NCBI GenBank assembly: GCA_039934415.1
Contig: JBDTME010000001.1
Location: 137,417 to 201,416, forward strand
Length of the DNA stretch: 64,000 nucleotides
Direction of reading: 5' to 3'
Source of the DNA: Patescibacteria group bacterium
GTDB lineage: Bacteria; Patescibacteriota; Microgenomatia; UBA1400; PJMF01
Position numbers and translations under genes: made by a program
Notes under the pieces: model-generated
Seen by the model: only the letters and a program-made list of their open reading frames with translations
The model's database searches: none
Told to the model about the DNA's origin: nothing
Shown: positions 8,493-28,085 of the stretch, piece after piece
How positions within the stretch are numbered: the stretch's first letter is position 1
Layout: each line of letters opens with the position of its first letter

Positions 8493-8494
8493 GA

Positions 8495-11839: not shown

Positions 11840-11875
11840 AAGTGAAATTGGATATACACTTAGATTCTAGCACAC

Positions 11876-12883
11876 CTACTCATCCTCTTTTTTAGTGTAT
11901 TTCTTCCCAAGATGCTCGTAAGCGTGTCTAGTGACAACTCTCCCTCTTGGAGTTCGTTTTAAAAATCCAATTTGAATGAGATAAGGTTCTAAGACTTCCT
12001 CTATCGTAATAGTATCCTCACTCAAAGTTGCAGCGATGGTAGAAAGTCCAACAGGTCCCCCATTATGGCGAAGAATCAATTGTTCCAGTAGTCTTCGGTC
12101 AGAGTGGTCTAGACCATAGGTATCAATTGCAAACATGTCCAGGGCTTTACTTACTTCTGTTAAAGAGATTGCACCATCTGACATCATCTGAGCATAATCA
12201 CGAATACGTTTAAGTAATTTTAGAGCTATGCGAGGCGTGCCTCTTGAGCGTTGGCCAATTTCAAGTGCTGCTGCGTCGTCAATTTTAACATTTAACTTTT
12301 GAGCAGCTTTTAAAGCTATTGTCTTTAACTCTTCAGGCTTGTAGTACTCCAGCCGATGAATCAAGCCAAACCGATCCCGAAACGGTCCGGCTAATGCTCC
12401 AAATCGAGTCGTTGCTCCGACCAAAGTAAAGCGGGGCAAATCAAGTCGAACAGTTCTAGCTGAGGGACCTTTTCCTAAAATGATATCGAGAGCAAAATCT
12501 TCCATGGCTGGATACAATGTTTCTTCAACTGTTTTTGGAAGGCGATGAATCTCATCAATAAATAAAATGTCACCATCCTCCAAGTTAGTGAGAATTGCAG
12601 CGAGATCACCAGGTTTTGTTAGCGCAGTTCCTGATGTGATCCGAATGTTTTTATCCATTTCCTTTGCAATTAAATGGGACAACGTGGTTTTCCCCAATCC
12701 TGGTGGACCATAAAACAAAGTGTGATCCATAACTTCTTCTCTTTGTTTTGCAGCAGTCAAGGAAATTTGCAAAGATTTTTTGATAGTTTCCTGTCCCAAA
12801 AATTCATCCCAACTTTTAGCTCTCAGCGAGATAAGAAGGATTTCGTCTTCAGGTGTTGTAGATTCGAAAGGAGTATCTGTCAT
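11876..12883 (-). CDS. ruvB: Holliday junction branch-migration ATPase RuvB
   Basis: 335 aa. Walker A 'GPPGLGKTT', Walker B 'ILFIDEIHRL', sensor regions and a C-terminal winged helix. Overlaps ruvA by 4 nt. Confidence 0.9.
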   Translation of the reverse strand: MTDTPFESTTPEDEILLISLRAKSWDEFLGQETIKKSLQISLTAAKQREEVMDHTLFYGPPGLGKTTLSHLIAKEMDKNIRITSGTALTKPGDLAAILTNLEDGDILFIDEIHRLPKTVEETLYPAMEDFALDIILGKGPSARTVRLDLPRFTLVGATTRFGALAGPFRDRFGLIHRLEYYKPEELKTIALKAAQKLNVKIDDAAALEIGQRSRGTPRIALKLLKRIRDYAQMMSDGAISLTEVSKALDMFAIDTYGLDHSDRRLLEQLILRHNGGPVGLSTIAATLSEDTITIEEVLEPYLIQIGFLKRTPRGRVVTRHAYEHLGKKYTKKEDE

Positions 12884-13446
12884 TTCGATAACTGTTTTAT
12901 GGCTAATTTAATCACTGATTGGATGCTCATTGCATCATAGTCTATATGTTGCAAAGCCCTGTAAATCTCATCTGTGCCATAACCAAAGTTTTCCAAAGCA
13001 GCTACAACGTCTGCGTATTGTTGAGATTCTGGTTTGAGATCCAACTCTTTGAGGGTGCCTAATTTGGAACGCAGATCAATAATGATTTTCTGTGCTAGCT
13101 TTTTGCCTACTCTTGGAATTTGAGTAAAAAAACCAATATCAGCCTGTTGTACTGCTTGAGTAATTGGCTCCACTCCCCGGTCAGCTATATGCAGCGCTGA
13201 CTTTGGGCCGATTCCGGAAACACTCAATAAGTACTCAAATAATACTTGGTCAGAGGGTGACAAAAAGCCGTAGAAAGAAATTTCATCTTCTCTGACGTGT
13301 GTGTGTATACATAATTCTACTGTTGGTTTATGTAACAGCTGACTGAGTGTGGATGTACCAACATTGACGGCATATCCGACGCCAGCAACGTCAATAATAA
13401 GTTGTTTTCCTAGTAATTTGGGAATACCTCGTAAGCTACCAATCAT
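12880..13446 (-). CDS. ruvA: Holliday junction DNA helicase subunit RuvA
   Basis: 188 aa. 'MIGSLRGI' N-terminus typical of RuvA. Helix-hairpin-helix 'GIGPKSAL'. Lies between ruvC and ruvB. Confidence 0.8.
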   Translation of the reverse strand: MIGSLRGIPKLLGKQLIIDVAGVGYAVNVGTSTLSQLLHKPTVELCIHTHVREDEISFYGFLSPSDQVLFEYLLSVSGIGPKSALHIADRGVEPITQAVQQADIGFFTQIPRVGKKLAQKIIIDLRSKLGTLKELDLKPESQQYADVVAALENFGYGTDEIYRALQHIDYDAMSIQSVIKLAIKQLSK

Positions 13447-13503
13447 AGTTCGGTCTTTATTCGTTTTTTTAACTATACAAGCTAACCTTCATCTCGTGAA
13501 GCT

Positions 13504-14004
13504 CTAGATATTATTTGCTTTTTTTGTCTTTTTACAAACTTGATGTGTCAATCCTATCGCGAGTGCGTCCAAAGTATCATCAAGCAATTTCTCACTCGCA
13601 GGGATTTTCAACTGTAATCGAACCATTTTTTCAATTGCTTTTTTATCAGCCTTGCCATTACCAGTGGCTGCCTGTTTTACTTCAATTGGAGAGTACTCAA
13701 AAATTTTCATGCTATGTTGTAAGCATAAGCCTGTGATTGCACCACGAACTTCAGCTACTCTCATCGCGGTTTTGACGTTTTTAGAAAAAAACAGAGTTTC
13801 AATTGCTAAATCAGTCGGTTGATAGAGTTGAATCATTTTCTCTAGAAATGATATGACTTGAGAAAGCCTTTGAAAGAAAGTTTCATTTTTGTTTGTTTCT
13901 ATGCTCCCGTATTGAAAGCTAGCCTGATCTAATTTGCCAATGACTACCGCCCAACCACAACGATCATAACCTGGATCGATAGCAAGAATTGTAGGAGTAC
14001 TCAT
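13504..14004 (-). CDS. ruvC: Crossover junction endodeoxyribonuclease RuvC
   Basis: 166 aa. 'ILAIDPGYDRCGWAV' is the RNase-H-like N-terminal catalytic Asp motif of RuvC. Gene order is ruvC-ruvA-ruvB. Confidence 0.8.
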   Translation of the reverse strand: MSTPTILAIDPGYDRCGWAVVIGKLDQASFQYGSIETNKNETFFQRLSQVISFLEKMIQLYQPTDLAIETLFFSKNVKTAMRVAEVRGAITGLCLQHSMKIFEYSPIEVKQAATGNGKADKKAIEKMVRLQLKIPASEKLLDDTLDALAIGLTHQVCKKTKKANNI

Positions 14005-15209
14005 TTGTTAAGAGTAGTAAAAATGTCTAACAACTTTTTTGCACTCAGTTCCCATGTGAATTTTTTGAGTTGATTGTCTGCTCGTTTCTCAAATTCCTTA
14101 CGTTCTTTCTGATTCAAATTCAGAGCTTTGTCGATTCCTTTCATGACATGAATAGAATTGTAGGGATTTACCAATACCCCAGCTTCACCAACAACTTCTG
14201 GCAAGCTAGTAGTTTCTGAAACTACAGGTACAACGTGGAATAACAATGATTCCAGTGCAGGCATTCCAAACCCTTCATGGATCCCAATCAATATTGAACA
14301 AAGAGCATGGGTGTACAGTATAGTTTTTTCCTCTTCATCTACATAACCTGTTAAAATAATATCTGACTTGCATACACTTTTTTTAATTCTATTTAAAATA
14401 GGTTCGGCTAGCCAGCCAGTTTTTCCAGCTATAACGAGTTTTAAGTCTCTCAGCGGATGATTGATCCTTTGATTTTTTCTTTTCTTTCTTTTTCCACTAG
14501 TAGTAAGTTGTTTGACTTCACTTTGATATTTCAGTTTTAAATGCTCAAAAGCCTCAACGAGTTGAACAATGTTTTTTCGTGGTTGTAATGTTCCCACGTA
14601 TAAAATATATGGTGCGTCGATTTTAAATTTATGAAATACCGTCTGACGCATATTTTGATTTTCTCGATGAGAAATTTGTGCATTCATCGCAGGATAAATA
14701 ACGGAAATTTTTTCCGGTTGTATTTTGTATTGTTTCTGCAAATCTTGTTTTGTGTACTCGCTAATGGCCACAATACGTTTTGCTTTCTGAACTGAGTACT
14801 TAGTCCATAGCTTGAGTTGCCAGTAGTCTTTCAGTTTGAATTGGCGAGGAAAATGAAGAAATCCTAGATCCATAACGCAGGAAACATACGGAATTGGGCA
14901 TAATCGAGGAGCGTAGTGTCCTGGTGTGAAAAACAGATCGAGTTCTTTTCGCATCTTAAATAATGCTAGAGGTAATCCCCATTGTGTAGCGAAGGCTTTT
15001 GGTTTGATCCAATGATAGGTCCAGCCAGTGCGCTCTTCCGGCATACCTTGTACTGGCTTGTTTGTCAGAAAGATCGTAAATATAAAATCGGCGTTATTTC
15101 GTGTTTGCTCCTCAATCTGTTTCATCAATTCAAAAGCATACACGTTGCTACCAACTCGGTTGTCTACATTAGCCTCATTGCCATCAATGCCTATCCGGAA
15201 ATTACTCAT
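14001..15209 (-). CDS. Family 4 glycosyltransferase (GT-B)
   Basis: 402 aa. C-terminal Glycos_transf_1-like 'YILYVGTLQPRKN...EGFGMPALES' with the E-x7-E motif. Confidence 0.65.
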   Translation of the reverse strand: MSNFRIGIDGNEANVDNRVGSNVYAFELMKQIEEQTRNNADFIFTIFLTNKPVQGMPEERTGWTYHWIKPKAFATQWGLPLALFKMRKELDLFFTPGHYAPRLCPIPYVSCVMDLGFLHFPRQFKLKDYWQLKLWTKYSVQKAKRIVAISEYTKQDLQKQYKIQPEKISVIYPAMNAQISHRENQNMRQTVFHKFKIDAPYILYVGTLQPRKNIVQLVEAFEHLKLKYQSEVKQLTTSGKRKKRKNQRINHPLRDLKLVIAGKTGWLAEPILNRIKKSVCKSDIILTGYVDEEEKTILYTHALCSILIGIHEGFGMPALESLLFHVVPVVSETTSLPEVVGEAGVLVNPYNSIHVMKGIDKALNLNQKERKEFEKRADNQLKKFTWELSAKKLLDIFTTLNK

Positions 15210-16432
15210 ATGGTCGCCCTCTCTTCCACTGCTCTGCGATACACTTTAATGGTTTTTTCGGCGGTCGTATCCCAGTTGAATAGTTGAAGTTGCAATTTCA
15301 TAGCTTGTCTACGATGTTCTCGTTCACTGCTATCTTCATTCAATAACTGCTCTAAACCGGTTCGGATACTTTCCACTTCTAGTGGATCGATCAGTTTTGC
15401 AGCTATGCCGCTAATTTCAGACATAGCAGAATTTTGCGAAGTAAGTACCGGTGTCCGATACGAAAACGCTTCTAGAATTGGTAAACCAAAACCTTCATAT
15501 AGTGAAGGATATGCAAAAACTTTAGCATTCTTAAATAAAGTGGTGAGAGTCTTATTTCCAACTCCTCCAAGCAAATGCAGACCTTCTGTCTCTGGATCAA
15601 TTTCTACACCCCACTGCGTCTTGCCTGCAATAACAAGGTCGTACTCTTTTTGGAAAGGTCTCCAGGCTTCAACTAAACGCTCAACATTCTTTCGAGGTTC
15701 GAGCGAGCCCACGAATAAAATAAATGGTTTTGATATGTTAACTTTTTTTAATAAGGCATCTTGTTCTTCTCTTGATAACGAGAGCTGATGTTCAGCTGGT
15801 AACGCTTCATAAACGAGGTGAACTTTCTCTGGTTTGAATCCTAATAGTTCAATGACATCTTTTTTAGTGGCATGACTGACAGCGATAACATGGGAATCAG
15901 TTTGCTTTAGTCTTTTCCAAGCAGCTTGATGTTTTGATAAGGTACTAGGATGTGCTGTCTCAGGAAATTTCAAAATAGCTAGGTCGTGAATGGTTGCTAC
16001 GATTGGAACCGTACTGGCTGGTGGTATTAATTCTTCCCATGCATGGTAGACATCGGTTTTTTCAATGATTGATTCAATTGGTGGCCAGCTGAGTTGATAC
16101 CAAAGTGTGGGCCAAATACTTGGAGGGAGCGGTAATACTTTTGAGTTACTTAACTTCTTATGCTCTTCAATAAATTTTCGAAGCATAGGCTGCTGGCGTA
16201 GCGAACTACCAAATGCGCTAATTTTAACGTCATTTTGTCTAAGTAATGCACTCACCAAATTTGTCGTATAAAAGGAGACGCCTCGTTTGTAGACAATAGG
16301 TGAGATATCAATCGTGATGTTGAGTGTTGTCGGCAAAACTGCCACCTTTCGTGAAAACTCGGACAAACCCAAGATTGGGTTCGTCAAAGAGCTGACCTGG
16401 TTGGTAATTATATTGTAGTAAATACTGTTCAA
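15206..16432 (-). CDS. Family 4 glycosyltransferase (GT-B)
   Basis: 408 aa. 'FILFVGSLEPRKN...EGFGLPILEA' (E-x7-E). The N-terminal 'LNITIDISP' is typical of GT4 starts, so the true start is probably a TTG/near-cognate codon around 16334; the listed ATG overlaps the upstream gene by 125 nt. Confidence 0.65.
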   Translation of the reverse strand: MNSIYYNIITNQVSSLTNPILGLSEFSRKVAVLPTTLNITIDISPIVYKRGVSFYTTNLVSALLRQNDVKISAFGSSLRQQPMLRKFIEEHKKLSNSKVLPLPPSIWPTLWYQLSWPPIESIIEKTDVYHAWEELIPPASTVPIVATIHDLAILKFPETAHPSTLSKHQAAWKRLKQTDSHVIAVSHATKKDVIELLGFKPEKVHLVYEALPAEHQLSLSREEQDALLKKVNISKPFILFVGSLEPRKNVERLVEAWRPFQKEYDLVIAGKTQWGVEIDPETEGLHLLGGVGNKTLTTLFKNAKVFAYPSLYEGFGLPILEAFSYRTPVLTSQNSAMSEISGIAAKLIDPLEVESIRTGLEQLLNEDSSEREHRRQAMKLQLQLFNWDTTAEKTIKVYRRAVEERATI

Positions 16433-17831
16433 TGTAATGATTTGGATCAGTCAGGTCAGTTAAATAATCAAAAACGATCACGTTCTGATAATCCAGTGCT
16501 CGAACCATATTCGGTTCAACCTGAGAGAACTCTGTTTTAGTTGTGGTACCCACATTAATCGTCGAAAATGGTTGATGGGTATACCAGTCCCAAGGTGAAA
16601 AAGGATGATCAAAACCGAACACAATGACTGTGTTTGTTGAAGAAAACTGACCATCAATAGTTCTGATTACAGTTCTCCAATCTTCCCTATGGTATTGTGG
16701 ATCCATGAAATATGAAAAAGTCCCAAAGAGATGAGTAGCCACTAATATGCTCAGCAAGCCAACAGCGGCAAGCTTAGTCCTTTTCCATTCCCAACCATAC
16801 ACCACCATAGTAGCGAGTAACAGTTCCATTGCTGGTAAAGCGAATAAGACTCTTTTAGGTTGCAGTACTGGCAAGAAGAAAGAAAAAATCCAAATTGAAA
16901 ATACTGGAAGAACGAACCAGCACCCGACGACTAAACTGGTGGTCATGCCAATTCGTTTACGTAAACTCCATAGTAGAAATAGTAATGTAATAATGAAAAT
17001 GAGACTAATCGAGATAAAAACTATGTTGGTTTCCAAGTTTATTACTCCAAATAAAAACTTTCCAAAAACAAGTTGTAATGCCTTGAGCTGAGGGGTACTG
17101 ACCACCATTTCCCATGTTGGTGTTTGAGTGCGCAGATGAGCACTCACTTGCAGTTGTTCTTTGAGGAAAGGTAACCATGGCAAGAAGGCGATTGTAGTGA
17201 TAACACCTGAAATTACTGCTTGTCTGACATGAACCACATTTCGACGTGTGCATAAAAACAAAAGCTGACCGATGAGTGCAAAAGGATAAAGATAAGTTGA
17301 GTACAAGCCTGCAATACTAGTGAAAATAAACAGGATGAGGAGCTTTGGTTTTATAATTGAGTGTTCACTCATATACAAGACTAGTAACCAGCCCAAAGCA
17401 GCCCAAAGTCCTGTTAATGCATAGGGCCGAAGCTCTTGCGAATAAAATAGATGAAAAGGGTTAAAAGATAACAGCAATGCCGTCAAAATAGCTATTTTTT
17501 GGTTTGTCAGCTTCTTTGCTATCAAGTAGGTCACCCAAATCATTACAAGTCCATCTGAAAGTGGACTAAGTCGGAGCCACCATTCTGAATGACTAACTAC
17601 CGTCATGAAATGAGTAATTAGGTGCATTAGAGGTGGTTGAAAATCTTCTTTGATCATGAGCTGCTGAGACAGAGGTCGTGCACTCTCAATTGCTTGTGCT
17701 GCCTCATCAAGCCAGAAGGAACCATTGAGCAAGGGAATTCTGAGGAGGAATGCTAAGATCAAAATTGGCCATATAAACCAACTTTTTGAGCTATTCTCCA
17801 GGCTAAAACTAAGTTTCGGATTTTTTTTCAC
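16308..17831 (-). CDS. GT-C fold membrane glycosyltransferase (PMT_2/ArnT-like)
   Basis: 507 aa, polytopic. First loop 'SFWLDEAAQAIESAR' carries a DE motif like the PMT/ArnT catalytic loop. Soluble C-terminal domain. Confidence 0.5.
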   Translation of the reverse strand: MKKNPKLSFSLENSSKSWFIWPILILAFLLRIPLLNGSFWLDEAAQAIESARPLSQQLMIKEDFQPPLMHLITHFMTVVSHSEWWLRLSPLSDGLVMIWVTYLIAKKLTNQKIAILTALLLSFNPFHLFYSQELRPYALTGLWAALGWLLVLYMSEHSIIKPKLLILFIFTSIAGLYSTYLYPFALIGQLLFLCTRRNVVHVRQAVISGVITTIAFLPWLPFLKEQLQVSAHLRTQTPTWEMVVSTPQLKALQLVFGKFLFGVINLETNIVFISISLIFIITLLFLLWSLRKRIGMTTSLVVGCWFVLPVFSIWIFSFFLPVLQPKRVLFALPAMELLLATMVVYGWEWKRTKLAAVGLLSILVATHLFGTFSYFMDPQYHREDWRTVIRTIDGQFSSTNTVIVFGFDHPFSPWDWYTHQPFSTINVGTTTKTEFSQVEPNMVRALDYQNVIVFDYLTDLTDPNHYIEQYLLQYNYQPGQLFDEPNLGFVRVFTKGGSFADNTQHHD

Positions 17832-18317: not shown

Positions 18318-18812
18318 TTGTTTCTAAGCTACAATATACTTATGTCCCTTCACTCCTCTATCCCTAGAATTCCATTCACTGCTGATGCATATGCCAAGAT
18401 GCAGGCAGAGTATCGAGAGTTGTTGAAGGAGCAGGATGAGCTAGTAGTCAGAGTAAACACTGCTCGATTAATGGGTGACTTGTCAGAGAACGGTGCGTAT
18501 AAATATGGCAAGATTGAGTTGGGAAATGTGCGACATCGTCTACGAGATTTGAAACACCTGATTACACATGGCGAAGTGGTTACTGCTTCGAAGTCAGGTT
18601 TCATTAGTTTTGGAAGCACTATAACTTTACAAAATGCTGCAAAAAAAATGACGTTCACTCTTGTAAGTGAGTTTGAATCTGATCCAGCGCAGGGAAAACT
18701 CTCCGACTCAAGCCCAATAGGTCAAGCTGTCAAAGGAAAAAAGATTGGTGATAGCGTAGTAGTTGTAACTCCGAATGGTGAGATGATGTACGAGATTGCT
18801 TCAGTTGAGTAA
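18318..18812 (+). CDS. greA: Transcription elongation factor GreA
   Basis: The N-terminal coiled-coil region has acidic tip residues ('DLSENGAYKYGKIELG'). The C-terminal FKBP-like domain 'SPIGQAVKGKKIGDSVVVVTPNGEMMYEIASVE' matches the GreA C-terminus. Probable true start at the internal Met near 18342. Confidence 0.75.
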   Translation: MFLSYNILMSLHSSIPRIPFTADAYAKMQAEYRELLKEQDELVVRVNTARLMGDLSENGAYKYGKIELGNVRHRLRDLKHLITHGEVVTASKSGFISFGSTITLQNAAKKMTFTLVSEFESDPAQGKLSDSSPIGQAVKGKKIGDSVVVVTPNGEMMYEIASVE

Positions 18813-19136
18813 ATGAATGTTTACTTCGGTTTTCAACATTTCCACTAACTCTGGATCCATATACTGATACTCGTCAGGAATATTGAGATTGACTATTTTT
18901 TTGTCTTTCATCTCAATTTGGAAATTTTCTTCTAAATATTCACGATGCTTTTTTTCCATTACAAAAATGATGTCAGCCCACTGAAGATCTTTTGAATTAA
19001 TATGATGAGCCGCACTTCCTGAAGTACCTGCCGAGCGAACTGATAATCCCGAAACAGTTTTGAAAATGTGTTCAGCGGTTGGGCTTCTATATTGATTGTA
19101 GGTACAAATGAAAAGAAGATTCATAAAATATTTCAA
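18801..19136 (-). CDS. Low-molecular-weight phosphatase family protein (LMW-PTP/ArsC-like)
   Basis: 111 aa. 'FICTYNQYRSP' fits the C-X5-R(S/T) P-loop of LMW phosphotyrosine phosphatases / arsenate reductases (nt 19086-19106). Immediately downstream of apbE. Confidence 0.5.
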   Translation of the reverse strand: MKYFMNLLFICTYNQYRSPTAEHIFKTVSGLSVRSAGTSGSAAHHINSKDLQWADIIFVMEKKHREYLEENFQIEMKDKKIVNLNIPDEYQYMDPELVEMLKTEVNIHLLN

Positions 19137-19145
19137 AACTATTTT

Positions 19146-20018
19146 CTAGTAGAACAACTCCCCTTTCCAATCGTCACTGACCTGAAGCGTAGCATCCGCA
19201 TTGACGATCAGATATTCTGCTTTTAACTCACTAGCTATTTCAGCATAATTTTCAGCTGGTGCAAAACTGAGACACGAGGTCATCTGGTCAGCTAAAAATG
19301 TTGAAGAAGAAATTGCAGCGTTTCCGAGCATCGAGGATACTGGTTTGCCCGTAGAAGCATTAACGAGGTGATGCCAGTTTTTCCATGCCCGTTTAAAGAT
19401 GTCCGAAACAGCAAGCCCTTGATTTTGGAGTCCGACAATTCCGATGGCAGTATCAGGCTTACCAGGATATTCGATGGCAACTTGCCAAGGTGAACCATCT
19501 CTTTTTTGTGTTCCAAACATGTCTCCACCACCTTCAACAAGATGATTCATGAACTTGTGTTTTTTCAAAATATTACTGATTTGGTCTATCCAGTATCCCT
19601 TACCGATGCCGCCGACGTCGAAAACTATAGGTCCATCTGTAATTAAAATTGTCTTGTGCACTGACCACTTGGGTGGTTTCCATTCTATTGTCTTTGGTGC
19701 TTTGCCAAAATTGTAATCTTGGTCATAACCAATTTCTTCAAAAAGCGTGGCAACACTCACATCAAACGCGCCATCACTCAATATACTTATTCTCTGTCCT
19801 GCTTGCAGCATCATAGCTAAAGTCTCGGAAATCTCATACTCACCTTGTTGTGCGTGACGAAATTTATTTGCTTCACTTGTAGAGATGAAACGAGAATACT
19901 GTTGATCGAACTGGTTCGTTTGTTCAAAAATATCTGTTATGACATTTTGTGGCAATTGTTCCACATCGACAGACACCTGCCAATGTGTACCCATCGATTC
20001 GAAAGAAAGGTTGAACAT
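19146..20018 (-). CDS. apbE: FAD:protein FMN transferase (ApbE family)
   Basis: 290 aa. N-terminal 'SMGTHWQVSV' (ApbE MGT start) and 'GGIGKGYWID' (nt 19593-19613) match the ApbE 'GGIAKGYAVD' flavin-binding motif. Eight nt downstream of the FMN-binding lipoprotein gene. Confidence 0.7.
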   Translation of the reverse strand: MFNLSFESMGTHWQVSVDVEQLPQNVITDIFEQTNQFDQQYSRFISTSEANKFRHAQQGEYEISETLAMMLQAGQRISILSDGAFDVSVATLFEEIGYDQDYNFGKAPKTIEWKPPKWSVHKTILITDGPIVFDVGGIGKGYWIDQISNILKKHKFMNHLVEGGGDMFGTQKRDGSPWQVAIEYPGKPDTAIGIVGLQNQGLAVSDIFKRAWKNWHHLVNASTGKPVSSMLGNAAISSSTFLADQMTSCLSFAPAENYAEIASELKAEYLIVNADATLQVSDDWKGELFY

Positions 20019-20026
20019 AGCAGAAA

Positions 20027-20479
20027 TTAGATTTGAGCTTTGAGATCTTGAAGTGAGGCGTTAAACGCATTGGTTGTTAAGGAAGACCCACCTACCCGGT
20101 CAATATTGGTGAGTTCACTCAACTTTTTTCCTTTAATAACAGCAGGTAAACCTTCAGCAAATTTCGTCTGGCGATCAACTGAAATTGGTTTTAATCCATG
20201 TATCTCAGTTTTTGCATCAGAAATAATGCCGTTTTCATCTAGTACTAAAGTAAATCCGACAGCCTCTTCTCCAGCAGGCGATTGATACTTTGTTGTTACA
20301 CTAACTTCCTTACCTTTGGTCATTCCTTCTGATGTTTTTTGGGTAGGTGCTGGTGTCATTTCGGCGGTAACTTCAGGAGTAACTGTTTGGTCTGAAGAAG
20401 AAGGCTGCGGCTGGCATGCTGCCAAAAGTACGCTTGAAACAATTGCGACACTGAGTAGAAGAGTAGTGGATTTTGGCAT
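20027..20479 (-). CDS. FMN-binding-domain lipoprotein (candidate ApbE substrate)
   Basis: 150 aa. Lipoprotein signal peptide with lipobox 'LAAC'. C-terminal 'IDRVGGSSLTTNAF' (nt 20072-20101) resembles the FMN_bind motif 'D-x-x-(S/T)-G-A-(T/S)-x-T' that ApbE flavinylates. A perfect AGGAGG Shine-Dalgarno lies 5 nt upstream of the ATG. Confidence 0.5.
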   Translation of the reverse strand: MPKSTTLLLSVAIVSSVLLAACQPQPSSSDQTVTPEVTAEMTPAPTQKTSEGMTKGKEVSVTTKYQSPAGEEAVGFTLVLDENGIISDAKTEIHGLKPISVDRQTKFAEGLPAVIKGKKLSELTNIDRVGGSSLTTNAFNASLQDLKAQI

Positions 20480-20484
20480 GTTGG

Positions 20485-20490
20485 CCTCCT
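20485..20490 (-). promoter_or_regulatory. Shine-Dalgarno AGGAGG for the FMN-binding lipoprotein gene
   Basis: The minus-strand sequence reads 'AGGAGGccaacATG'. Most other genes in the window lack a comparable ribosome-binding site. Confidence 0.55.
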
Positions 20491-20528
20491 ATAATGTATG
20501 TAATATATAGACGAAGATAGATAATACC

Positions 20529-21386
20529 ATGAAAAGAAATTTGTTACCGATAAAAATTCTAATACTCTATCTTATTTTACTAATGCTGATTGGTAGCTTA
20601 AGTCAAGCAGGATTATCACTGAGTGTGTGGTTTACTCAGTTTAGAAATTTCGCTTTAGTACTAGGTGGAGCGCAAGCAGTCTATAGTCTTTTGCTCTTTT
20701 TAAAAAAAACAAAGCCAACTATATTCGACCACCGATTGATTACCTGTGCAATTCTATTTTTGTTATTCTACTCTGATAATCCTTGGTATTTTTTCTTTGG
20801 TTTGGGTGTCAGTGTCGAACTTCTGCAACGCTTCATTCGCTTGCCGACTGGTCCTGTAGTGAACCCTGCAGGTTTCGTTGTATTGATTGCAACACTAATG
20901 GGTTACTACCCAGTCTGGTGGGGAGCAAGTTTTGCACCTCGAACCCCTTTGTCTTTTGGTGGTATAAGTGTGGCGGTACTTTTTACAATTCCTTTTGGTT
21001 TATACGTTGCATATAAATATAGAAAATTAAAAATCATCTTTTCTTTATTATTGGCATTTGCTTTGTCTTACCTTTTCATATCTCAACACAGTCCTCTTTT
21101 TATAATCACAGAAGGTACTTTCCTATTCTTTGCTTTAGTAATGGCAATTGAACCAAAGACGTCACCTGTAATACGCAATGAGCAAATAGTATACGGAGTT
21201 ACGTTAGGAATATTAGTTACGCTTGCAAATATAATTAATTTCCCTGAAACATTTGTTGGTCCTCTAGTCCTATGCAATATCATTTTTAATATGTATAGAA
21301 ATCGAAAATTTTTAGCTACGAAGTTTCGTCGATCTTCCGTACCCACCTCGCCAGTAGTAACTGGCAGTGCTACAATCAGCCAATGA
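20529..21386 (+). CDS. Polytopic membrane protein, possible reduced RnfD/NqrB-like subunit
   Basis: 285 aa, 7-8 TMs. 'FFALVMAIEPKTSPV' (nt 21141-21167) resembles the 'FFMATDPVTSP' block of the NQR2_RnfD_RnfE family. Divergent from the apbE/FMN-bind pair, separated by 49 bp. The assignment is tentative. Confidence 0.35.
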   Translation: MKRNLLPIKILILYLILLMLIGSLSQAGLSLSVWFTQFRNFALVLGGAQAVYSLLLFLKKTKPTIFDHRLITCAILFLLFYSDNPWYFFFGLGVSVELLQRFIRLPTGPVVNPAGFVVLIATLMGYYPVWWGASFAPRTPLSFGGISVAVLFTIPFGLYVAYKYRKLKIIFSLLLAFALSYLFISQHSPLFIITEGTFLFFALVMAIEPKTSPVIRNEQIVYGVTLGILVTLANIINFPETFVGPLVLCNIIFNMYRNRKFLATKFRRSSVPTSPVVTGSATISQ

Positions 21387-22366
21387 GTACACTACGTTTT
21401 TCTAACCAAATAGTTTTAATTACTGGGGCAGCAGGTTTCATTGGTTCACATTTGGCAGAAACTATCATGAACGAAGGTGGTCAAGTCATTGGGGTAGACA
21501 ACTTTATTACTGGCCAAAAGAAACATATTGACATGCTCGTTGAGCAATTTGGAACAGCATTCAAGTTTATTGAGGCAGATGTGAGCTCCAATCCTGAAGA
21601 GTACTTAGCTGAAGAGCAGAAAATAGATTTAATTTTACATTTTGCTTCACCAGCCAGTCCCCCGAAATATCAAGAACACCCTATGGAGACCTATTTAGTA
21701 AATAGCATGGGTACTCATCAACTTTTATCTTTTTTACGCGTTCACCATCCCCAAGCCAAGTTTTTGTTTGCTTCTACCTCAGAAATTTATGGAAATCCAC
21801 TCGTTCATCCACAAACAGAAATGTACTGGGGAAATGTTAATCCTAATGGCGTGCGCTCTTGTTATGATGAATCGAAGCGCATGGGAGAAACAATTTGTGG
21901 TGTTTTTCAAAGAGACTTTGAGATGGATGTGAGGATGGTTCGCATTTTTAACACATACGGTCCTCGGATTGATCTAGAAGATGGTCGTATTATCCCTAGT
22001 TTTATTAATGCTGTTCTAAATAAAACTCCAATGCTGATTTTTGGAGATGGTTCCCAGACACGTTCCTTTTGTTATGTTGATGATTTAGTTTCAGGTATCT
22101 TAGCACTTGCAGTACACCCTGATGGTAATGGACAGACTCTCAATTTGGGTAACCCCGGTGAGTTTACAGTGCTTGAAACTGTAAAAGTGTTTGAATTAAT
22201 TGTTGGAGAATCTCTTGCCTTAGAACATAGACCATTACCTCAGGATGATCCAATGCGTCGACAACCAGACATCACAAAAGCAAAATCCTTACTGAATTGG
22301 GAGCCGAAAGTCAGTTTTGAACAAGGTCTAATTAAAACACTTCAATACTTCCAGGCTCAGCATTAA
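21383..22366 (+). CDS. UDP-glucuronate decarboxylase (UDP-xylose synthase, SDR family)
   Basis: 327 aa. 'ITGAAGFIGSHL' Rossmann motif. 'YDESKRMGE' is the YxxxK catalytic motif as in UXS 'YDEGKRVAE'. 'NTYGPR' also fits. Confidence 0.75.
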   Translation: MSTLRFSNQIVLITGAAGFIGSHLAETIMNEGGQVIGVDNFITGQKKHIDMLVEQFGTAFKFIEADVSSNPEEYLAEEQKIDLILHFASPASPPKYQEHPMETYLVNSMGTHQLLSFLRVHHPQAKFLFASTSEIYGNPLVHPQTEMYWGNVNPNGVRSCYDESKRMGETICGVFQRDFEMDVRMVRIFNTYGPRIDLEDGRIIPSFINAVLNKTPMLIFGDGSQTRSFCYVDDLVSGILALAVHPDGNGQTLNLGNPGEFTVLETVKVFELIVGESLALEHRPLPQDDPMRRQPDITKAKSLLNWEPKVSFEQGLIKTLQYFQAQH

Positions 22367-22386
22367 ATTTTAATCTCTGAAAATTT

Positions 22387-22860
22387 ATGAAAATTTTAAT
22401 TACGTTCGCGTCGATAGGTGGCAATACCATGATGGTTGCTCAAAAAATCGAAGAACTTTTGAAAGCACACGGCCAGGCTGAAGTAGAGTTAGTTGATATG
22501 GCTGAACTCGAACCAGCAACATTAAGCTCGTACCCGATTGTTTTTATAGGATCTTCTACCTGGGGTGATGGAGAATATAATGACTATTCACAAGTTTTTT
22601 TTGACAATTTGAAAGCAGCTACTGTTGACCTTAGCCAAAGCCGGTTTGCCATTTTTGGTTTAGGGGAAACTTTTTATCCAGTTTTTTGCGGTGCAGTTGA
22701 ACATATGCAGCAAGATTTGCAGACGAAACAGGCACAACTACTGGGTGAAGCTTTGAAAATTGATGGCTTTCCAGACGAGAATGTCATGCAATCTGTTGAG
22801 AAATGGGTAGAAGACATCATAAATGATGTAAATTTCACCTCTTCTCACATCGAGAAATAA
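22387..22860 (+). CDS. Flavodoxin (short-chain)
   Basis: 157 aa. 'KILITFASIGGNTMMVAQKI' matches the flavodoxin FMN phosphate-binding signature (T/S-x-T-G-x-T). 'FIGSSTWGDGE' is the typical isoalloxazine loop. Confidence 0.65.
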   Translation: MKILITFASIGGNTMMVAQKIEELLKAHGQAEVELVDMAELEPATLSSYPIVFIGSSTWGDGEYNDYSQVFFDNLKAATVDLSQSRFAIFGLGETFYPVFCGAVEHMQQDLQTKQAQLLGEALKIDGFPDENVMQSVEKWVEDIINDVNFTSSHIEK

Positions 22861-22900: not shown

Positions 22901-24166
22901 ATGAAGTATTTTCGCTCACTCATATCACATCCCTTTTTAAGAGGAACTTTCATCTTCACATCTCTCTCTTTTGTGGCCAGTTTGTTTAGTTATGCTTTTA
23001 ACTTTTTGCTGGCACACGTTGTATCCCGGACGCAATATGGTGAGTATTCAGCAGCTATTTCGTATTTCTCATTATTCACTGTCCCGTTTGGCGCGCTGAG
23101 CTTAATTTTAATGAAAAAAATAGGCCAAATATCTTTGTCACAGCGGGAAAGTTATGTATTAGCCGTAGAAAAATCGTTCTATCAAAGTATTGCTAAATAT
23201 TTACCACTTATCGCTATCATTTCTTTATTAGTGGGAGTGGTGCTCTTGTTTGTTTCTCGTTTACAACTTTCAAGTGTCGCGTTCGTCCTTGTTTTAACTG
23301 GGATGACTTTTTTTATTACAATTTACACATCATTTTTTCAGGCGAAGAAACAATTTGTATTTGCTGGAGTATTTCTTTGTTTGTTATCTTTGCTCAAAGT
23401 ACTTACTGGCGGAGTTTCGGCTTTTTTCCGAGATGATCTTTGGGAGTTATATCTCATGATTGGAATCATACACGTACTGATGATCTTATTTGCGAAATGG
23501 TATTTGAGGAGAGATGGAAAAAAGATGAGCGTGAATGTTACTTTTCCAAAATTTTCCATTTTAATTGCTCAACAATCTTTTTACATACCGGTTATTACTT
23601 TTCTAGGTTTGGTCGCGATGACTAATATTGATATCATGATTGTCAAACGCTTTTTCGATGCCGCTGACGTAGGTTCGTATGCAGCGATTTCTCTGTTAGG
23701 AAGAATTATCTTATATGTTAGTTTACCTCTAACTACTGTTGCATTTGCTTTTTTCACCGACAAAGAAACAAATAATCACAGTAATTCTGTGCTGTGGATT
23801 AGTTTGGGATTTCTAGCTATTTTAGGAGTCATCAGTGTCGCAGGTTATACGCTTTTTCCAATGTTAGTTGTGAAAATTATTTTTGGGGCACAATATTTGT
23901 CTATTTCTTCTGTAGTTTGGTTAGCTGCAGTGTTTGGTTCTATTTATTCTTTGGCCACCTTGCTTGGTCAATACTGGGTAGCTCAACACCACCCAATTAG
24001 CATGGCTTCTCTATTATGCGCTGCAATACAAGCTGTTTGGTTAATGGTCATGCATGACACGTTTGTCACGGTGTTGTCGATCTCAATTGTGTGCTCAACA
24101 GTCTTACTAGTTATTTACTTGTCTGCCCTCATTTATCACCAAAGGTGGATCTATGTTTCAGCGTGA
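22901..24166 (+). CDS. Wzx-like oligosaccharide flippase / polysaccharide biosynthesis protein (MOP superfamily)
   Basis: 421 aa, about 12 TMs. N-terminal 'LLAHVVSRTQYGEYSAAISY' resembles the Polysacc_synt 'lARlLgpeeyGvys' block. Confidence 0.45.
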   Translation: MKYFRSLISHPFLRGTFIFTSLSFVASLFSYAFNFLLAHVVSRTQYGEYSAAISYFSLFTVPFGALSLILMKKIGQISLSQRESYVLAVEKSFYQSIAKYLPLIAIISLLVGVVLLFVSRLQLSSVAFVLVLTGMTFFITIYTSFFQAKKQFVFAGVFLCLLSLLKVLTGGVSAFFRDDLWELYLMIGIIHVLMILFAKWYLRRDGKKMSVNVTFPKFSILIAQQSFYIPVITFLGLVAMTNIDIMIVKRFFDAADVGSYAAISLLGRIILYVSLPLTTVAFAFFTDKETNNHSNSVLWISLGFLAILGVISVAGYTLFPMLVVKIIFGAQYLSISSVVWLAAVFGSIYSLATLLGQYWVAQHHPISMASLLCAAIQAVWLMVMHDTFVTVLSISIVCSTVLLVIYLSALIYHQRWIYVSA

Positions 24167-24950
24167 CAGCCATTTCTTAAGTCTTATTGTCCCTGCCTTT
24201 CGTCAAGAAAAAACAATCGTTAAGAATATAAAACAGCTCCTGAATGTGTTGGATACTATTCGATACGACTATGAACTCATCATTGTCATTGATGGGAAAG
24301 TTGACGAATCTTTGAAGATTTTAAAAAAAGCGAAATTGGGAAAGACAACAATTGTTAGTTATAAACAAAACCGTGGCAAAGCGTTTGCGATTAGAATGGG
24401 GATGAATCGTGCTAAAGGTGACTATGTCATGTTTATAGATTCAGGATTAGAAATCGATCCAAACGGAATCTCGATGTTACTTGAGCATATGGAGTGGTAT
24501 GACGCTGATGTGATTGTTGGGTCGAAGAGGCACCCAGCTTCTCATGTGAACTATACTTGGCAGCGGAAAATACTGAGTTATGGGTACTATTATTTTGTGC
24601 GATTGTTCTTTGGGTTAAATGTCAGAGATACTCAAGCGGGAATCAAAATTTTCAAGAAATCAGTTTTGGAAAAAATCTTGCACAGATTAGTGGAAAAGAG
24701 ATTTGCGGGAGATTTGGAAATGTTGGTTGTAGCAAGGCAAGTGGGGTCAAGACGTATCTTTGAGGCACCGATTAAGTTAAATTACGAGTTCAGTACATTG
24801 ACTTCAGCTGCTACTTATCGATCGATATTTTTCATTATTGTGGATACGTTAGCTATTTTCTATCGAGCACATATTATTAGATATTACCGAGGGACGCATC
24901 ATCGATTAGTAGAGCCAAAAGACATTCGAATCTACCGTCTGACGAAATGA
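24153..24950 (+). CDS. Family 2 glycosyltransferase, dolichyl/polyprenyl-phosphate sugar synthase-like (DPM1/GtrB/ArnC type)
   Basis: 265 aa. 'LSLIVPAFRQEKTI...IIVIDGKVDES...FIDSGLE' are GT2 motifs. A C-terminal hydrophobic helix 'IFFIIVDTLAIFY' as in GtrB/ArnC. Confidence 0.6.
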   Translation: MFQRDSHFLSLIVPAFRQEKTIVKNIKQLLNVLDTIRYDYELIIVIDGKVDESLKILKKAKLGKTTIVSYKQNRGKAFAIRMGMNRAKGDYVMFIDSGLEIDPNGISMLLEHMEWYDADVIVGSKRHPASHVNYTWQRKILSYGYYYFVRLFFGLNVRDTQAGIKIFKKSVLEKILHRLVEKRFAGDLEMLVVARQVGSRRIFEAPIKLNYEFSTLTSAATYRSIFFIIVDTLAIFYRAHIIRYYRGTHHRLVEPKDIRIYRLTK

Positions 24951-26059
24951 TAAATAAGACAAGAAGTATCATTATCTTTAATTGGCGTGACCCTAGTGAT
25001 CCTCTGGCTGGAGGCGCTGAGCGAGTTACACTCAAGCACGCCCAATACTGGGTTGCAGTTGGTCATCAAGTAACTTGGGTGAGCGGTACTTTTCCAGGTT
25101 GTAAGAAAGAGGAAAATAAGGGAAAAATTCGCTTCATCAGATTAGGTAGTTCGAGAACACTATTTCTCAGAGCTTGGTGGATTTTTTGGATTCGATTAAA
25201 CGGCAACTTTGACGTTGTAATTGATGAAGTGCATGGTTTGCCCATGTTTTCTCCATTATGGTCCGGAGACAAAAAGGTGATTACTTTCATTCATGAGGTT
25301 GCACAGGAAATTTGGGCGGAGATGTTCGCTGTTCCCATTAGCTGGCTTGGTCAATGGTTTGAGCGTTGGATTTTTCCGAGGATCTATCACTCCACCCTTT
25401 TTTGGGTAGACTGCCAATCAACTTTACTTGATTTAGTCAAAATTGGAATTCCTATGAAAAGGATTTCAGTCATTCCTTGTGCAATCGACCCAGTTCCTAA
25501 CATTCCTAAACAATCGAAAGAGAAAGATTTAACACTTATTTTTGTAGCGCGACTCGTCAAAATGAAAGGGATTGAGTTTGCTTTGCAATCCTTTGCAAGG
25601 ATTTTGCAAGATGAACCAAAAGCAAAGCTTTGGGTTGTCGGAGGTGGTTCAACTGAGTATCTAAAAACTTTGCATGTTATTTGTAAAAAGTTGAATATTA
25701 TAAAGCAAGTCAGGTTCTATGGGTTAGTTGAAGAAAAACAAAAATTTATTTTACTCGCAAAAGCACATTTTCTCATTCACACGTCAATTAGAGAGGGTTT
25801 TGGATTAACAGTGCTTGAAGCAAATTCACAACGGACCCCAGCAGCAGTGTTTGACGTTCCAGCCTTAAGAGATCTCGTGAATGATCAAAATGGTATTATT
25901 GTGCCATTTGAAGATACGGATCAATTGGCTCGACAGATTCTGTTGCTTTTTCAGAATGATAAGCGCTATGGGAGAATTCAAAAAACGGCGTATACTTTTA
26001 GTCAACAATTTAGATGGAGCACCTTCACTCAACAGAGTGAAGCGTTGGTGAAGGTATGA
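24947..26059 (+). CDS. Family 4 glycosyltransferase (GT-B)
   Basis: 370 aa. 'LIFVARLVKMKG...IREGFGLTVLEA' with E-x7-E. Confidence 0.6.
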   Translation: MINKTRSIIIFNWRDPSDPLAGGAERVTLKHAQYWVAVGHQVTWVSGTFPGCKKEENKGKIRFIRLGSSRTLFLRAWWIFWIRLNGNFDVVIDEVHGLPMFSPLWSGDKKVITFIHEVAQEIWAEMFAVPISWLGQWFERWIFPRIYHSTLFWVDCQSTLLDLVKIGIPMKRISVIPCAIDPVPNIPKQSKEKDLTLIFVARLVKMKGIEFALQSFARILQDEPKAKLWVVGGGSTEYLKTLHVICKKLNIIKQVRFYGLVEEKQKFILLAKAHFLIHTSIREGFGLTVLEANSQRTPAAVFDVPALRDLVNDQNGIIVPFEDTDQLARQILLLFQNDKRYGRIQKTAYTFSQQFRWSTFTQQSEALVKV

Positions 26060-27201
26060 GTAGTTCTGTACAATTTTTCCCCTTGGCGAAACCTGTACTG
26101 GGACGGGAGGAAGAAAAAGCGGTTATTGAGGCTTTACGTTCTGGTTGGATTACATTGGGCCCAAAAACTGCAGAGTTCGAAGAGCAATTTTGTAAATACA
26201 TTGGCTGTAAATACGCGATTGCGCTTAATTCTGCAACCGCAGCATTGCACATCGCATTTTTTGATTTGAATTTAAAGCCTGGAGACGAAGTGATTGTTCC
26301 TGCTTTTACATTTGCGGCTACTGTCAACACAGTTATTCATTCTGGAGGAACTCCTGTTTTAGCTGATGTTGATCCCGAAACGTTTTGTCTTAATCCTAAA
26401 TCAGTTGAGGCAAAAATCACTTCTCGCACGCGAGCAATTTGTGCTGTTCATTATGCAGGTCATCCTTGTGATATGGATGCGCTTGAAAAACTTGCCAAAA
26501 AACATCATTTAGAAATCGTAGAAGATGCTGCCACTGCAGTGGGTACGGAGTACCATGGAAAAAAAATTGGTAACTCGAATCATTCAGTTTGTTTTAGTTT
26601 TCATCCGATAAAAAACATGACCACAGGGGACGGTGGAATGCTGACGATCAATGATAAAGAAAAAGCAGACCGGATGCGTCTACTCCGTTTGCAAGGTATG
26701 AACAAAGAAGCATGGAAACGGTTGGATAAGTCGGGTTCCTGGTTCTATGAGATCGTTGCACCTGGATTTAAGTACAACATGACGGATATATCGGCAGCAA
26801 TTGGTATAGAACAGCTCAAAAAACTCGACAAATTTGACAAGAGAAGAACGGCTATAGTGAAAATGTATAAAAAATTACTTAAGAATAAAGAACTCACTTT
26901 TCAAAAAATTCAACGAGATGTTGTTCACAGTCACAACCTTTTTCCAATCTTGCTGCCTGAACGACTTATTTCAAAACGTAATGAAATCATTGATAAATTA
27001 AAAGAGGCTCAAATTGGGGCAAACGTCTATTATATTCCACTCAATTATCATCCGTACTATCAAGAAAAGTTTGGTTGGAAAAAAGGTGAGTATCCAGTGA
27101 CGGAATCAATTTATTCTCGGTTGATAAATTTGCCACTCTACCCTAGTTTGAAAAATCAAGACATTGAATACATTGCTGAACACGTTGCAAAACTATTATG
27201 A
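26056..27201 (+). CDS. DegT/DnrJ/EryC1/StrS-family PLP-dependent sugar aminotransferase
   Basis: 381 aa. 'SFHPIKNMTTGDGGM' contains the PLP-Lys motif of this family. 'DEVIVPAFTFAAT' also matches. Confidence 0.8.
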   Translation: MSSSVQFFPLAKPVLGREEEKAVIEALRSGWITLGPKTAEFEEQFCKYIGCKYAIALNSATAALHIAFFDLNLKPGDEVIVPAFTFAATVNTVIHSGGTPVLADVDPETFCLNPKSVEAKITSRTRAICAVHYAGHPCDMDALEKLAKKHHLEIVEDAATAVGTEYHGKKIGNSNHSVCFSFHPIKNMTTGDGGMLTINDKEKADRMRLLRLQGMNKEAWKRLDKSGSWFYEIVAPGFKYNMTDISAAIGIEQLKKLDKFDKRRTAIVKMYKKLLKNKELTFQKIQRDVVHSHNLFPILLPERLISKRNEIIDKLKEAQIGANVYYIPLNYHPYYQEKFGWKKGEYPVTESIYSRLINLPLYPSLKNQDIEYIAEHVAKLL

Positions 27202-28085
27202 TGTACATTCCAGATCGGAAGAGTCTTTCAGTTATTTTAAAAAAATCAGATCAATATCAAAATTGGGTTGACCAATATTTGGTGGATATTGCCGATCAAG
27301 TAAAGATTCAGCACGAGGATGCCTTTTTATATCATCACCAAGACAAATTTGATTCTGAGATGTTTGGATTGAAAGTTGGCAAAATTGAGGACGTCATTGG
27401 TGAAAATAAGTCAAATATTTTACATGTTGTCAATGAATTCTTTGAGACTAACCCATACGAGTATTGTGTAATTCGTTTGGCCCAGCACTTCATTGATTGG
27501 ATTCAAGCATTTCAACAACATGGTGCACTCTTTTTGGATGCTACCGTAGAATTAGTTTGTGACGTTCACAAAGTGAGTACTCCCTCAATTTCTCCGTTGG
27601 TCACTGAGGAGCTTAGTCAGAAAATGATTGACCAGACTTTGGAGATTGCCAGTTCATTCTGCCACGGTCGTTTTTTTACTGATCCAGATCTTCAAAAGGG
27701 GTTTGAAGTGTACACAACTTGGATTCAGAATTCGATTGATAAAAAAGCTGCTGATAGAACTTTCGTGTTATACGACCAAGATCAGGTTCATGGTTTTGCT
27801 ACGATCAAAGGTGGTCTTCTTGGTGATCTAAAGAGTTGGCGAATTCAGTTAGTTGGAAAGCATGGGAACTCGGTTCGCTCTGGGGTGGCTGAAACATTAT
27901 TACAACATGTTATCGCAGTTGCTCAACAAGACAATGTTGACGTTGTTTTGATTGCAACGCAATGCACTAACATCCCTGCCTTACGGGCATATCAGAGTGC
28001 TGGATTTTCACCATATGGGAGTGGAGTCACTTTAGGTTGGAAAAAACATCGGAAGTCGATTCAAGAGGATACTAGCCAAGTTTAA
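27198..28085 (+). CDS. GNAT-fold N-acetyltransferase (WecD-like two-domain sugar N-acetyltransferase)
   Basis: 295 aa. C-terminal GNAT motif A 'VRSGVAETLL' (R-x-x-G-x-A) and 'LRAYQSAGF'. Overlaps the upstream aminotransferase by 4 nt, a WecE/WecD-like arrangement. Confidence 0.45.
   Translation: MMYIPDRKSLSVILKKSDQYQNWVDQYLVDIADQVKIQHEDAFLYHHQDKFDSEMFGLKVGKIEDVIGENKSNILHVVNEFFETNPYEYCVIRLAQHFIDWIQAFQQHGALFLDATVELVCDVHKVSTPSISPLVTEELSQKMIDQTLEIASSFCHGRFFTDPDLQKGFEVYTTWIQNSIDKKAADRTFVLYDQDQVHGFATIKGGLLGDLKSWRIQLVGKHGNSVRSGVAETLLQHVIAVAQQDNVDVVLIATQCTNIPALRAYQSAGFSPYGSGVTLGWKKHRKSIQEDTSQV

Follow-up and report, generated by a model that had tools for sequence, protein, structure and literature searches.

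Introduction

The closest known counterparts of the genes described here are the 'NQR/RNF-like' flavinylation clusters, reported from 127 genomes that belong mainly to Actinobacteria and the candidate phyla radiation (Méheust 2021, eLife, PMC8238504). This Nqr/Rnf-like class is defined by a PF03116-PF00175 fusion adjoining FMN_bind or ApbE genes, and the published pipeline dropped FMN_bind and ApbE genes that lack a signal peptide (PMC8238504). Later modelling found the transmembrane (TM) subunit of these complexes to be devoid of the flavinylated Thr (Fig. 4F-G in Huang 2024, mSystems, PMC11334425), and in an AlphaFold-multimer model the partner's flavinylation site docks beside the non-covalent flavin pocket of the TM subunit (PMC11334425). 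The complex itself is predicted only and biochemically uncharacterised. It is the closest known system to three small genes in a 64-kb stretch of a Patescibacteria metagenome-assembled genome (MAG), the whole of which we call the window. They encode a stand-alone RnfD/NqrB-like membrane protein, a lipoprotein of FMN_bind type and an ApbE-family enzyme, a transferase of flavin mononucleotide (FMN) from flavin adenine dinucleotide (FAD) to protein. We consider it somewhat probable (roughly 0.58) that this triad conducts electrons across the membrane as a minimal, unfused Nqr/Rnf-like system whose lipoprotein is flavinylated by ApbE.

The triad shares with the Nqr/Rnf-like clusters an NqrB/RnfD-like TM protein, an extracytosolic FMN_bind subunit of NqrC/RnfG type and an apbE gene within the cluster, and the window TM protein, too, is without the flavinylated Thr of NqrB and RnfD. 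It differs in that this protein has no C-terminal FAD/NAD-binding (PF00970/PF00175) domain, in that the partner does not reach the PF04205 threshold and has GGSS in place of [S/T]GA[S/T], and in that its ApbE has no signal peptide. The missing NAD-binding domain, the sub-threshold partner and the signal-less ApbE would each lead to exclusion from the published class, as that class is defined. We found no paper describing the unfused variant, and nothing on ApbE in Patescibacteria or Saccharibacteria past Méheust 2021.

Three further systems bear on the comparison. The likeness to Rnf (RnfABCDGE) and Na+-NQR (NqrA-F) lies in the RnfD/NqrB fold with its NPA and (A)T[DE]P.TSP motifs, in the RnfG/NqrC-type FMN_bind partner and in ApbE-dependent flavinylation chemistry, whereas the triad has two of the six subunits and its covalent-FMN loop is deleted, so that electron flow is presumably one-way instead of following the semicircular ion-pumping path. 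With FmnB and PplA of Listeria monocytogenes the triad has in common a monoderm-type surface lipoprotein with an FMN_bind(-type) domain and an adjoining ApbE-family gene. PplA carries two FMN_bind domains, the window lipoprotein a single FMN_bind-type domain, and electrons in Listeria come via Ndh2 and demethylmenaquinone, not from an RnfD-like protein. The Pfam-annotated genes around the six triad loci examined include no RnfA/B/C/E or NqrA/D/E/F-type gene and no Ndh2, EetA/B or DmkA/B-type gene. FmnB is a lipoprotein that acts outside the cell and receives FAD through a dedicated energy-coupling factor (ECF) exporter (PMC9973259), whereas the window ApbE is signal-less. It resembles in this the ApbE of Klebsiella pneumoniae, a signal-less, cytosolic enzyme that flavinylates a soluble fumarate reductase (PMC12052999); there, however, the substrate FMN_bind domain is cytosolic, while the sole candidate substrate here is exported. 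An earlier reading of the window made from its sequence alone (the sequence-only reading) had likened the locus to the PplA/FmnB pair. The Nqr/Rnf-like complex is closer, and a simple FmnB/PplA-style extracytoplasmic flavin trafficking fits poorly because ApbE is signal-less in all 28 unique triads.

Results

A conserved three-gene unit

All open reading frames (ORFs) named in the sequence-only reading are present in the window where it had placed them. Relatives were gathered from a species-representative genome collection, from metagenomes and by exact look-up, and all their ORFs were screened with profiles of the window families. This gave 34 non-redundant loci (loci, here and elsewhere, are cited by L numbers) with an RnfD-like gene of the close family, 26 of them with enough upstream sequence for the triad to be judged. 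The lipoprotein homologue, ApbE and the divergent RnfD-like gene stand in the same arrangement in 23 of the 26, and the hosts are Patescibacteria wherever they are named. The outer flanks of these triads are mutually unrelated, the divergent gap measures 39-71 bp (L035, L036, L037, L040), and no genes but the three of the triad recur when all loci are screened with the profiles. Retention of the triad amid unrelated flanks indicates that the three genes are the functional unit, with the nearby flavodoxin gene at best an accessory and the adjacent phosphatase and short-chain dehydrogenase/reductase (SDR) genes bystanders. The proposal of a flavinylation-associated, membrane-linked redox module built from ApbE, an FMN_bind-type lipoprotein and an RnfD/NqrB-like protein is supported, as are the conservation of its neighbourhood and a divergent gap of exactly 49 bp in the window.

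Three lineages of the close family have an RnfD-like gene without ApbE and lipoprotein within the available flanks (L039 from Moraniibacteriota; L004/L051-L053 from Moranbacteria; L007). The L039 gene adjoins type IV secretion (conjugation-like) genes, namely PrgI, a TraC-like gene and a TraG-type ATPase, together with a CAP-domain protein.

An RnfD/NqrB-like membrane protein without the covalent-FMN loop

The membrane protein, annotated as "RnfD" at NCBI (the lipoprotein is "hypothetical"), scores 32.3 bits with PF03116 (cutoff 27.7), over its C-terminal half only, and a profile search against PDB retrieves RnfD at an E value of 5e-8. Its conserved motifs are NPA, WWG and EPKTSP, the last within a MAIEPKTSP block that aligns with MATDYASSPV / ATDPVTSP of the solved RnfD and NqrB. 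The AlphaFold2 (AF2) model has a predicted local distance difference test (pLDDT) score of 91 and 10 TM helices; the relation to RnfD/NqrB and the motif alignment proposed earlier both stand, the count of 7-8 TM helices does not. Foldseek returns full-length matches to RnfD (9eri_D) and NqrB (7xk3_B) with a TMq of 0.56-0.67 and a probability of 1.00, and Rh, Amt and urea channels match the fold at lower rank. Judged from charge distribution and the model, the two termini are cytosolic, as are the segments KKTKP, KYRKLK and (C-terminal) RNRK…RR, while the WWG loop faces outward.

In RnfD and NqrB the covalent FMN sits in the loop that follows the NPA helix. This loop is ~30 residues shorter in the window protein than in A. 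woodii RnfD, and the flavinylated Thr ([S/T]GAT) is not present in it. WWGAS, the one GA[S]-like site, was considered as a cryptic flavinylation site and ruled out: it has no upstream Asp, and in orthologues the residue following WWG[ATV] varies among Ser, Asn and Asp. The protein ends 28 residues past the last TM helix, and its close homologues (n=31) are all 260-343 residues long. Small RnfD-like proteins (250-300 residues) amount to 1357 cluster representatives in a library-wide profile search. A distant relative retrieved by the window-family profile (P0207, 495 residues) joins a small RnfD-like domain with the WWG and EPKTSP motifs to C-terminal FAD_binding_6 and NAD_binding_1 domains, and is of the published Nqr/Rnf-like type; another protein (P0202, 363 residues) combines an RnfD-like domain with an extra TM/lipobox segment and a Rieske [2Fe-2S] domain. 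These FNR-like and Rieske fusions argue that the family functions in transmembrane electron transfer and not in transport.

The predicted cytosolic tail of the RnfD-like protein (window 21300-21386) ends ...SPVVTGSATISQ, and the tails of three relatives (P0002, P0005, P0006) end ...QTGSATMNG, ...QTGATINSS and ...SATINA. The tail resembles an ApbE flavinylation tag at a protein terminus, and it shares the predicted cytosolic location of the signal-less ApbE. As a general ApbE target it was ruled out, since no more than 3-4 close relatives share it with the window protein.

Other relatives carry different extensions or neighbours. P0169 (L074:1050-2723, 557 residues) joins an RnfD-like domain to a Cys-rich, extracytoplasmic-looking extension of ~290 residues, and its gene is preceded by an FMN_bind-like ORF (VNGASLT). 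A distant clade from Omnitrophota, Aenigmatarchaeota, Elusimicrobiota and other MAGs (L008-L034, L075-L096) consists of stand-alone small RnfD-like proteins with no ApbE or FMN_bind neighbour. At 26 loci of this clade the RnfD-like gene is followed directly by one for a conserved secreted protein of ~115-140 residues without a Pfam match (e.g. L017:2631-3056), in which His-rich and C-terminal Cys motifs, by eye, tentatively recall superoxide reductase. At five loci of the clade (L016, 1928-2548; L018; L082; L090; L091) the RnfD-like gene has as its neighbour one for a secreted cupredoxin/COX2-like protein (PF13473 at 26.7 bits, just below cutoff), which again hints that extracytoplasmic redox proteins are fed by RnfD-like proteins of the small type.

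A lipoprotein with a probable derived flavinylation motif

The lipoprotein consists of a signal peptide with a LAAC lipobox (…VLLAAC), a low-complexity linker of ~35 residues and a globular domain of ~90 residues that ends …IDRVGGSSLTTNAFNASLQDLKAQI; DRVGGSSLTT lies 17 residues from the C-terminus. Set against D-x-x-[S/T]-G-A-[S/T], the window motif D-R-V-G-G-S-S keeps the Asp, the Gly and the acceptor Ser and differs at positions 4 and 6. Within an alignment of 99 family members DRVGGSSLTT is identical in 69, the acceptor position (133) is Ser in 96 and Thr in 2, and the acceptor, the adjoining residues and the upstream Asp are conserved in 96-99. GGAS, SGAS and AGAT variants occur in the family in the same gene context. 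PF04205 is matched weakly by 56 of the 99 members, and its cutoff (22 bits) is passed at 23-29 bits by five of eight orthologues tested, from more divergent triads (L058, L059, L065, L066, L093), with canonical or near-canonical motifs (DVVSGASLTT, DRVSGASVTT, DTIAGATVTT, DRIGGASLTT). Because the family grades into canonical-motif orthologues that pass the FMN_bind cutoff within the same triad, we take Ser133 to be the homologue of the flavinylated Ser/Thr and the predicted FMN acceptor, and DRVGGSSLTT to be, as far as its sequence tells, a derived flavinylation motif. An A-to-V substitution in such a motif retained ~50% flavinylation, and Ser works as an acceptor (PMC12052999).

In the AF2 model, residues 57-150 have a pLDDT above 90 and form a β3-α-α layout in which the last helix has Ser133 at its N-terminus. 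Roughly half of the family members are lipoproteins, and the rest carry an N-terminal signal-anchor helix; the domain is extracytoplasmic in both. The triad partner proteins have no twin-arginine motif and are always exported or anchored. One Moranbacteria locus encodes, ~5 kb from its triad, a second, TM-anchored FMN_bind-like paralogue (L040:648-1094, DKVGKSSLTT).

An ApbE without an export signal

The assignment of the third gene to ApbE is confirmed: the protein matches PF02424 at 146.4 bits (cutoff 25.6) over profile positions 1-258 of 266, and solved ApbEs match it at an E value of 1e-16, with GGIGKGYWID aligned to the FAD-site motif of the E. coli and Pseudomonas enzymes. GGIGKGYWID, GGGD, WHH and ADQMTS are invariant in eight triad orthologues; their catalytic roles are assigned from the literature. 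In the window enzyme 5 residues precede the first conserved strand (F..MGT.W), and in the 28 unique triad ApbEs 5-13 do so. A signal peptide hidden in an upstream extension was ruled out, as a stop codon lies 8 bp upstream and the 28 orthologues share the start site. We predict that the window ApbE is cytosolic. A signal peptide or lipobox is typical of extracytosolic ApbEs, though not strictly defining.

A distant lipoprotein of the GSSLT type (VVNGSSLTP, 31% identity) adjoins a signal-less ApbE of 293 residues with no RnfD-like gene nearby (L042:8001-9477). At this locus the pairing of a predicted cytosolic ApbE with an exported GSS-motif protein reaches beyond the triad.

Locus layout and neighbouring genes

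Table 1. The triad and adjacent features, with positions in the window
Feature	Position	Strand	Basis or remark
greA	18318-18812	+	convergent with the LMW-PTP-like ORF
Low-molecular-weight protein tyrosine phosphatase (LMW-PTP)-like ORF, 111 aa	18801-19136	-	PF01451, partial match
ApbE-family FAD:protein FMN transferase, 290 aa	19146-20018	-	PF02424
FMN_bind-type lipoprotein, divergent, 150 aa	20027-20479	-	LAAC lipobox, DRVGGSSLTT, family alignment
Divergent intergenic region, 49 bp	20480-20528	.	between the lipoprotein-apbE operon and the RnfD-like gene
RnfD/NqrB-like membrane protein, stand-alone, 285 aa	20529-21386	+	PF03116, fold match
SDR epimerase/decarboxylase (sugar-nucleotide enzyme), 327 aa	21383-22366	+	between the RnfD-like and flavodoxin genes; absent from the sequence-only reading
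Short-chain flavodoxin, 157 aa, tentative accessory	22387-22860	+	PF00258, NF005216

The apbE start lies 8 bp downstream of the end of the lipoprotein gene. Of the 11 AGGAGG copies in the window, two are followed at 3-13 nt by the start codon of a frame that stays open for 60 codons or more, in one case the lipoprotein ATG (spacer 5) and in the other a GTG inside a longer ORF. The lipoprotein gene is the sole full-length ORF start in the window with a properly placed AGGAGG, in agreement with the earlier remark that it alone has a perfect ribosome-binding site. The 49-bp divergent gap contains no convincing sigma-70 consensus. A scan of 18.7-23 kb was uninformative, with promoter-like matches fewer than in shuffled sequence and terminator-like matches about equal, and an Rfam scan of the window gave no matches.

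The flavodoxin is well identified (PF00258 at 82.2 bits against a cutoff of 25; NF005216 at 103 bits) and lies, as had been noted, 1.0 kb downstream of the RnfD-like gene on the same strand. Its membership of the module was overstated: a flavodoxin gene is near the triad in four of 22 informative loci (the window, L001, L035, L060), three of which are closest relatives, and not in the 18 others. The link is weak for this reason, and we keep the flavodoxin as a tentative accessory and possible cytosolic electron donor. Because the SDR gene is confined to the window and L001 and suits the glycan locus around it, it was rejected as a module member. The LMW-PTP-like ORF was rejected as well, since it is found in the window and in no relative's locus; its identity holds up, with a PF01451 match at 35.3 bits (cutoff 23.2; best stretch, profile positions 2-47 of 144) and the CX5R(S) P-loop (CTYNQYRS), in a protein ~30-40 residues below the family norm. 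The 3' ends of this ORF and greA overlap by 12 bp.

The triad is embedded in a large region for cell-surface glycan biosynthesis (window 7011-17831 and 22901-30622) that encodes two PMT_2 proteins, Wzy_C, several GT2 and several GT4 glycosyltransferases, a hexapeptide acyltransferase, a DegT aminotransferase and a GNAT protein, with ruvABC inserted at 11876-14004. The statement that no other respiratory genes are visible holds for the ~28 kb around the locus only, which carry glycan biosynthesis genes and RuvABC. The G+C content of the window falls from ~0.40 to ~0.34 past 28 kb.

Discussion

From the gene identities, folds, motifs, topology signals and three-gene conservation observed here we infer the following electron path for the triad. 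The 10-helix RnfD/NqrB-like protein would span the membrane and hold one or more non-covalent flavins, as NqrB and RnfD do, and the membrane-tethered lipoprotein would dock on its outer face. The lipoprotein would carry FMN in phosphoester linkage to Ser133, installed from FAD by ApbE. Electrons would pass from a cytosolic donor, for which the flavodoxin is the only candidate encoded nearby, and in some relatives only, through the RnfD-like protein to the lipoprotein FMN, and from there to an extracytoplasmic acceptor.

Several observations weigh against this scheme. The window lipoprotein itself has no PF04205 match at an E value of 1 or below (cutoff 22 bits), so that the earlier claim of an FMN-binding lipoprotein holds for the lipobox, the motif and the matches of orthologues, and fails for the window protein's own match, which by that reading's own terms formally refutes it; the FMN_bind assignment survives this because of the orthologue matches and the continuity of the motif. 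Two residues of that motif do not follow D-x-x-[S/T]-G-A-[S/T]: it has G in place of S/T and S in place of A. Foldseek with the lipoprotein model places IscU first and RnfG lower; an IscU-like Fe-S scaffold, also the top match by PDB profile, was ruled out, as the mature lipoprotein has no cysteine and its family has FMN_bind matches. All screened loci lack a conserved fourth gene that would point to an acceptor, and no NAD(P)H-binding domain or FNR-like ORF was found near any close-family locus. Lastly, none of the 28 unique triad ApbEs has a signal peptide, a lipobox or a hydrophobic/TM segment, and the membrane is predicted to separate ApbE from the lipoprotein, canonical-motif orthologues included.

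This last paradox may be read in three ways. FMN may be attached in the cytosol prior to Sec export, ApbE may have a different, cytosolic role, or it may reach the outside by an undescribed route. Flavinylation before export is attractive in that FAD is cytosolic and the tags that ApbE modifies are short and unstructured; we know of no precedent for ApbE-type flavinylation ahead of export. We put forward only tentatively, and with more doubt than confidence, that throughout Patescibacteria a signal-less ApbE flavinylates the unfolded lipoprotein precursor, which is then exported by Sec, and that the product is a minimal two-protein conduit without an NAD(P)H-binding domain, possibly fed by flavodoxin. 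If true, cytosolic flavinylation of this kind would spare a minimal genome a dedicated FAD exporter and be the first example of an ApbE-type flavinylation that precedes export.

The electron-transfer pair may also work as we propose while its lipoprotein is not flavinylated by the triad ApbE and holds a non-covalent flavin or none. ApbE would then have a cytosolic job, for which FAD pyrophosphatase activity or flavin handling as in Treponema Ftp, loading of the cytosolic face of the RnfD-like protein and flavinylation of the TGSAT-type tail are candidates. Such a division of labour fits the lack of an export signal in every triad ApbE, a motif that is non-canonical in most family members, the cytosolic ...TG(S)AT tail of the RnfD-like protein in the window and 3-4 close relatives, and the cytosolic target of the Klebsiella enzyme, fumarate reductase (PMC12052999). 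We nevertheless consider it unlikely, though deserving of attention, because conservation of the acceptor, its neighbours and the upstream Asp in 96-99 of 99 members is hard to explain without modification; moreover, orthologues with a fully canonical motif pair with the same signal-less ApbE, and the tail motif is missing from most triads that still hold ApbE.

Two further readings were weighed. A flavin-auxotrophic symbiont might use the lipoprotein to capture FMN or riboflavin, the RnfD-like protein as a permease and a cytosolic ApbE/Ftp to process the flavin or pass it on, for example to flavodoxin. The lower-ranking matches of the fold to Rh, Amt and urea transporters, the cytosolic ApbE, the flavodoxin gene adjacent in some relatives and the non-redox surroundings of the module agree with such a role, but small RnfD-like relatives are fused to FNR-like and Rieske redox domains that indicate electron transfer, the lipoprotein has retained an acceptor motif of flavinylation type and not a generic binding site, and we know of no RnfD/NqrB homologue that acts as a flavin transporter; flavin acquisition therefore strikes us as quite improbable. 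Hardly any likelihood is left to a PplA/FmnB-like extracellular electron-transfer unit with the flavodoxin and the LMW phosphatase as functional members. The gene types are there, and the RnfD-like gene runs in the same direction as the SDR and flavodoxin genes, yet the phosphatase is confined to the window, the flavodoxin recurs in just four of 22 loci, ApbE is not a lipoprotein as FmnB is, and the Ndh2, EetA/B or DmkA/B-type genes of that pathway are missing from the Pfam-annotated surroundings of the six triad loci examined; as stated, this version is already largely refuted by the synteny data.

What is new here is the unfused triad with a signal-less ApbE; the kind of system is already known from predictions, as the Nqr/Rnf-like class. 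Since only three small genes are involved, the triad offers a tractable model for transmembrane electron transfer of the RnfD/NqrB type. Patescibacteria are thought to be without respiratory chains. They were also scored as strikingly poor in extracytosolic flavinylation, in a survey that required an FMN_bind or ApbE match with a signal peptide (PMC8238504). Triads with a sub-cutoff partner, as in the window, satisfy neither of these requirements, and triads with a cutoff-passing partner would count as flavinylation components, yet belong to no named class. These episymbionts would gain an electron sink, or redox activity at their surface, from a conserved minimal flavin conduit that leads there. 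The combination of a cytosolic ApbE with an exported substrate raises the question of where and when flavinylation takes place, and of the route by which FAD reaches extracytosolic ApbEs elsewhere. The weight of the finding lies mainly in this topology paradox and in the apparent prevalence of the triad in a phylum thought to be without such machinery.

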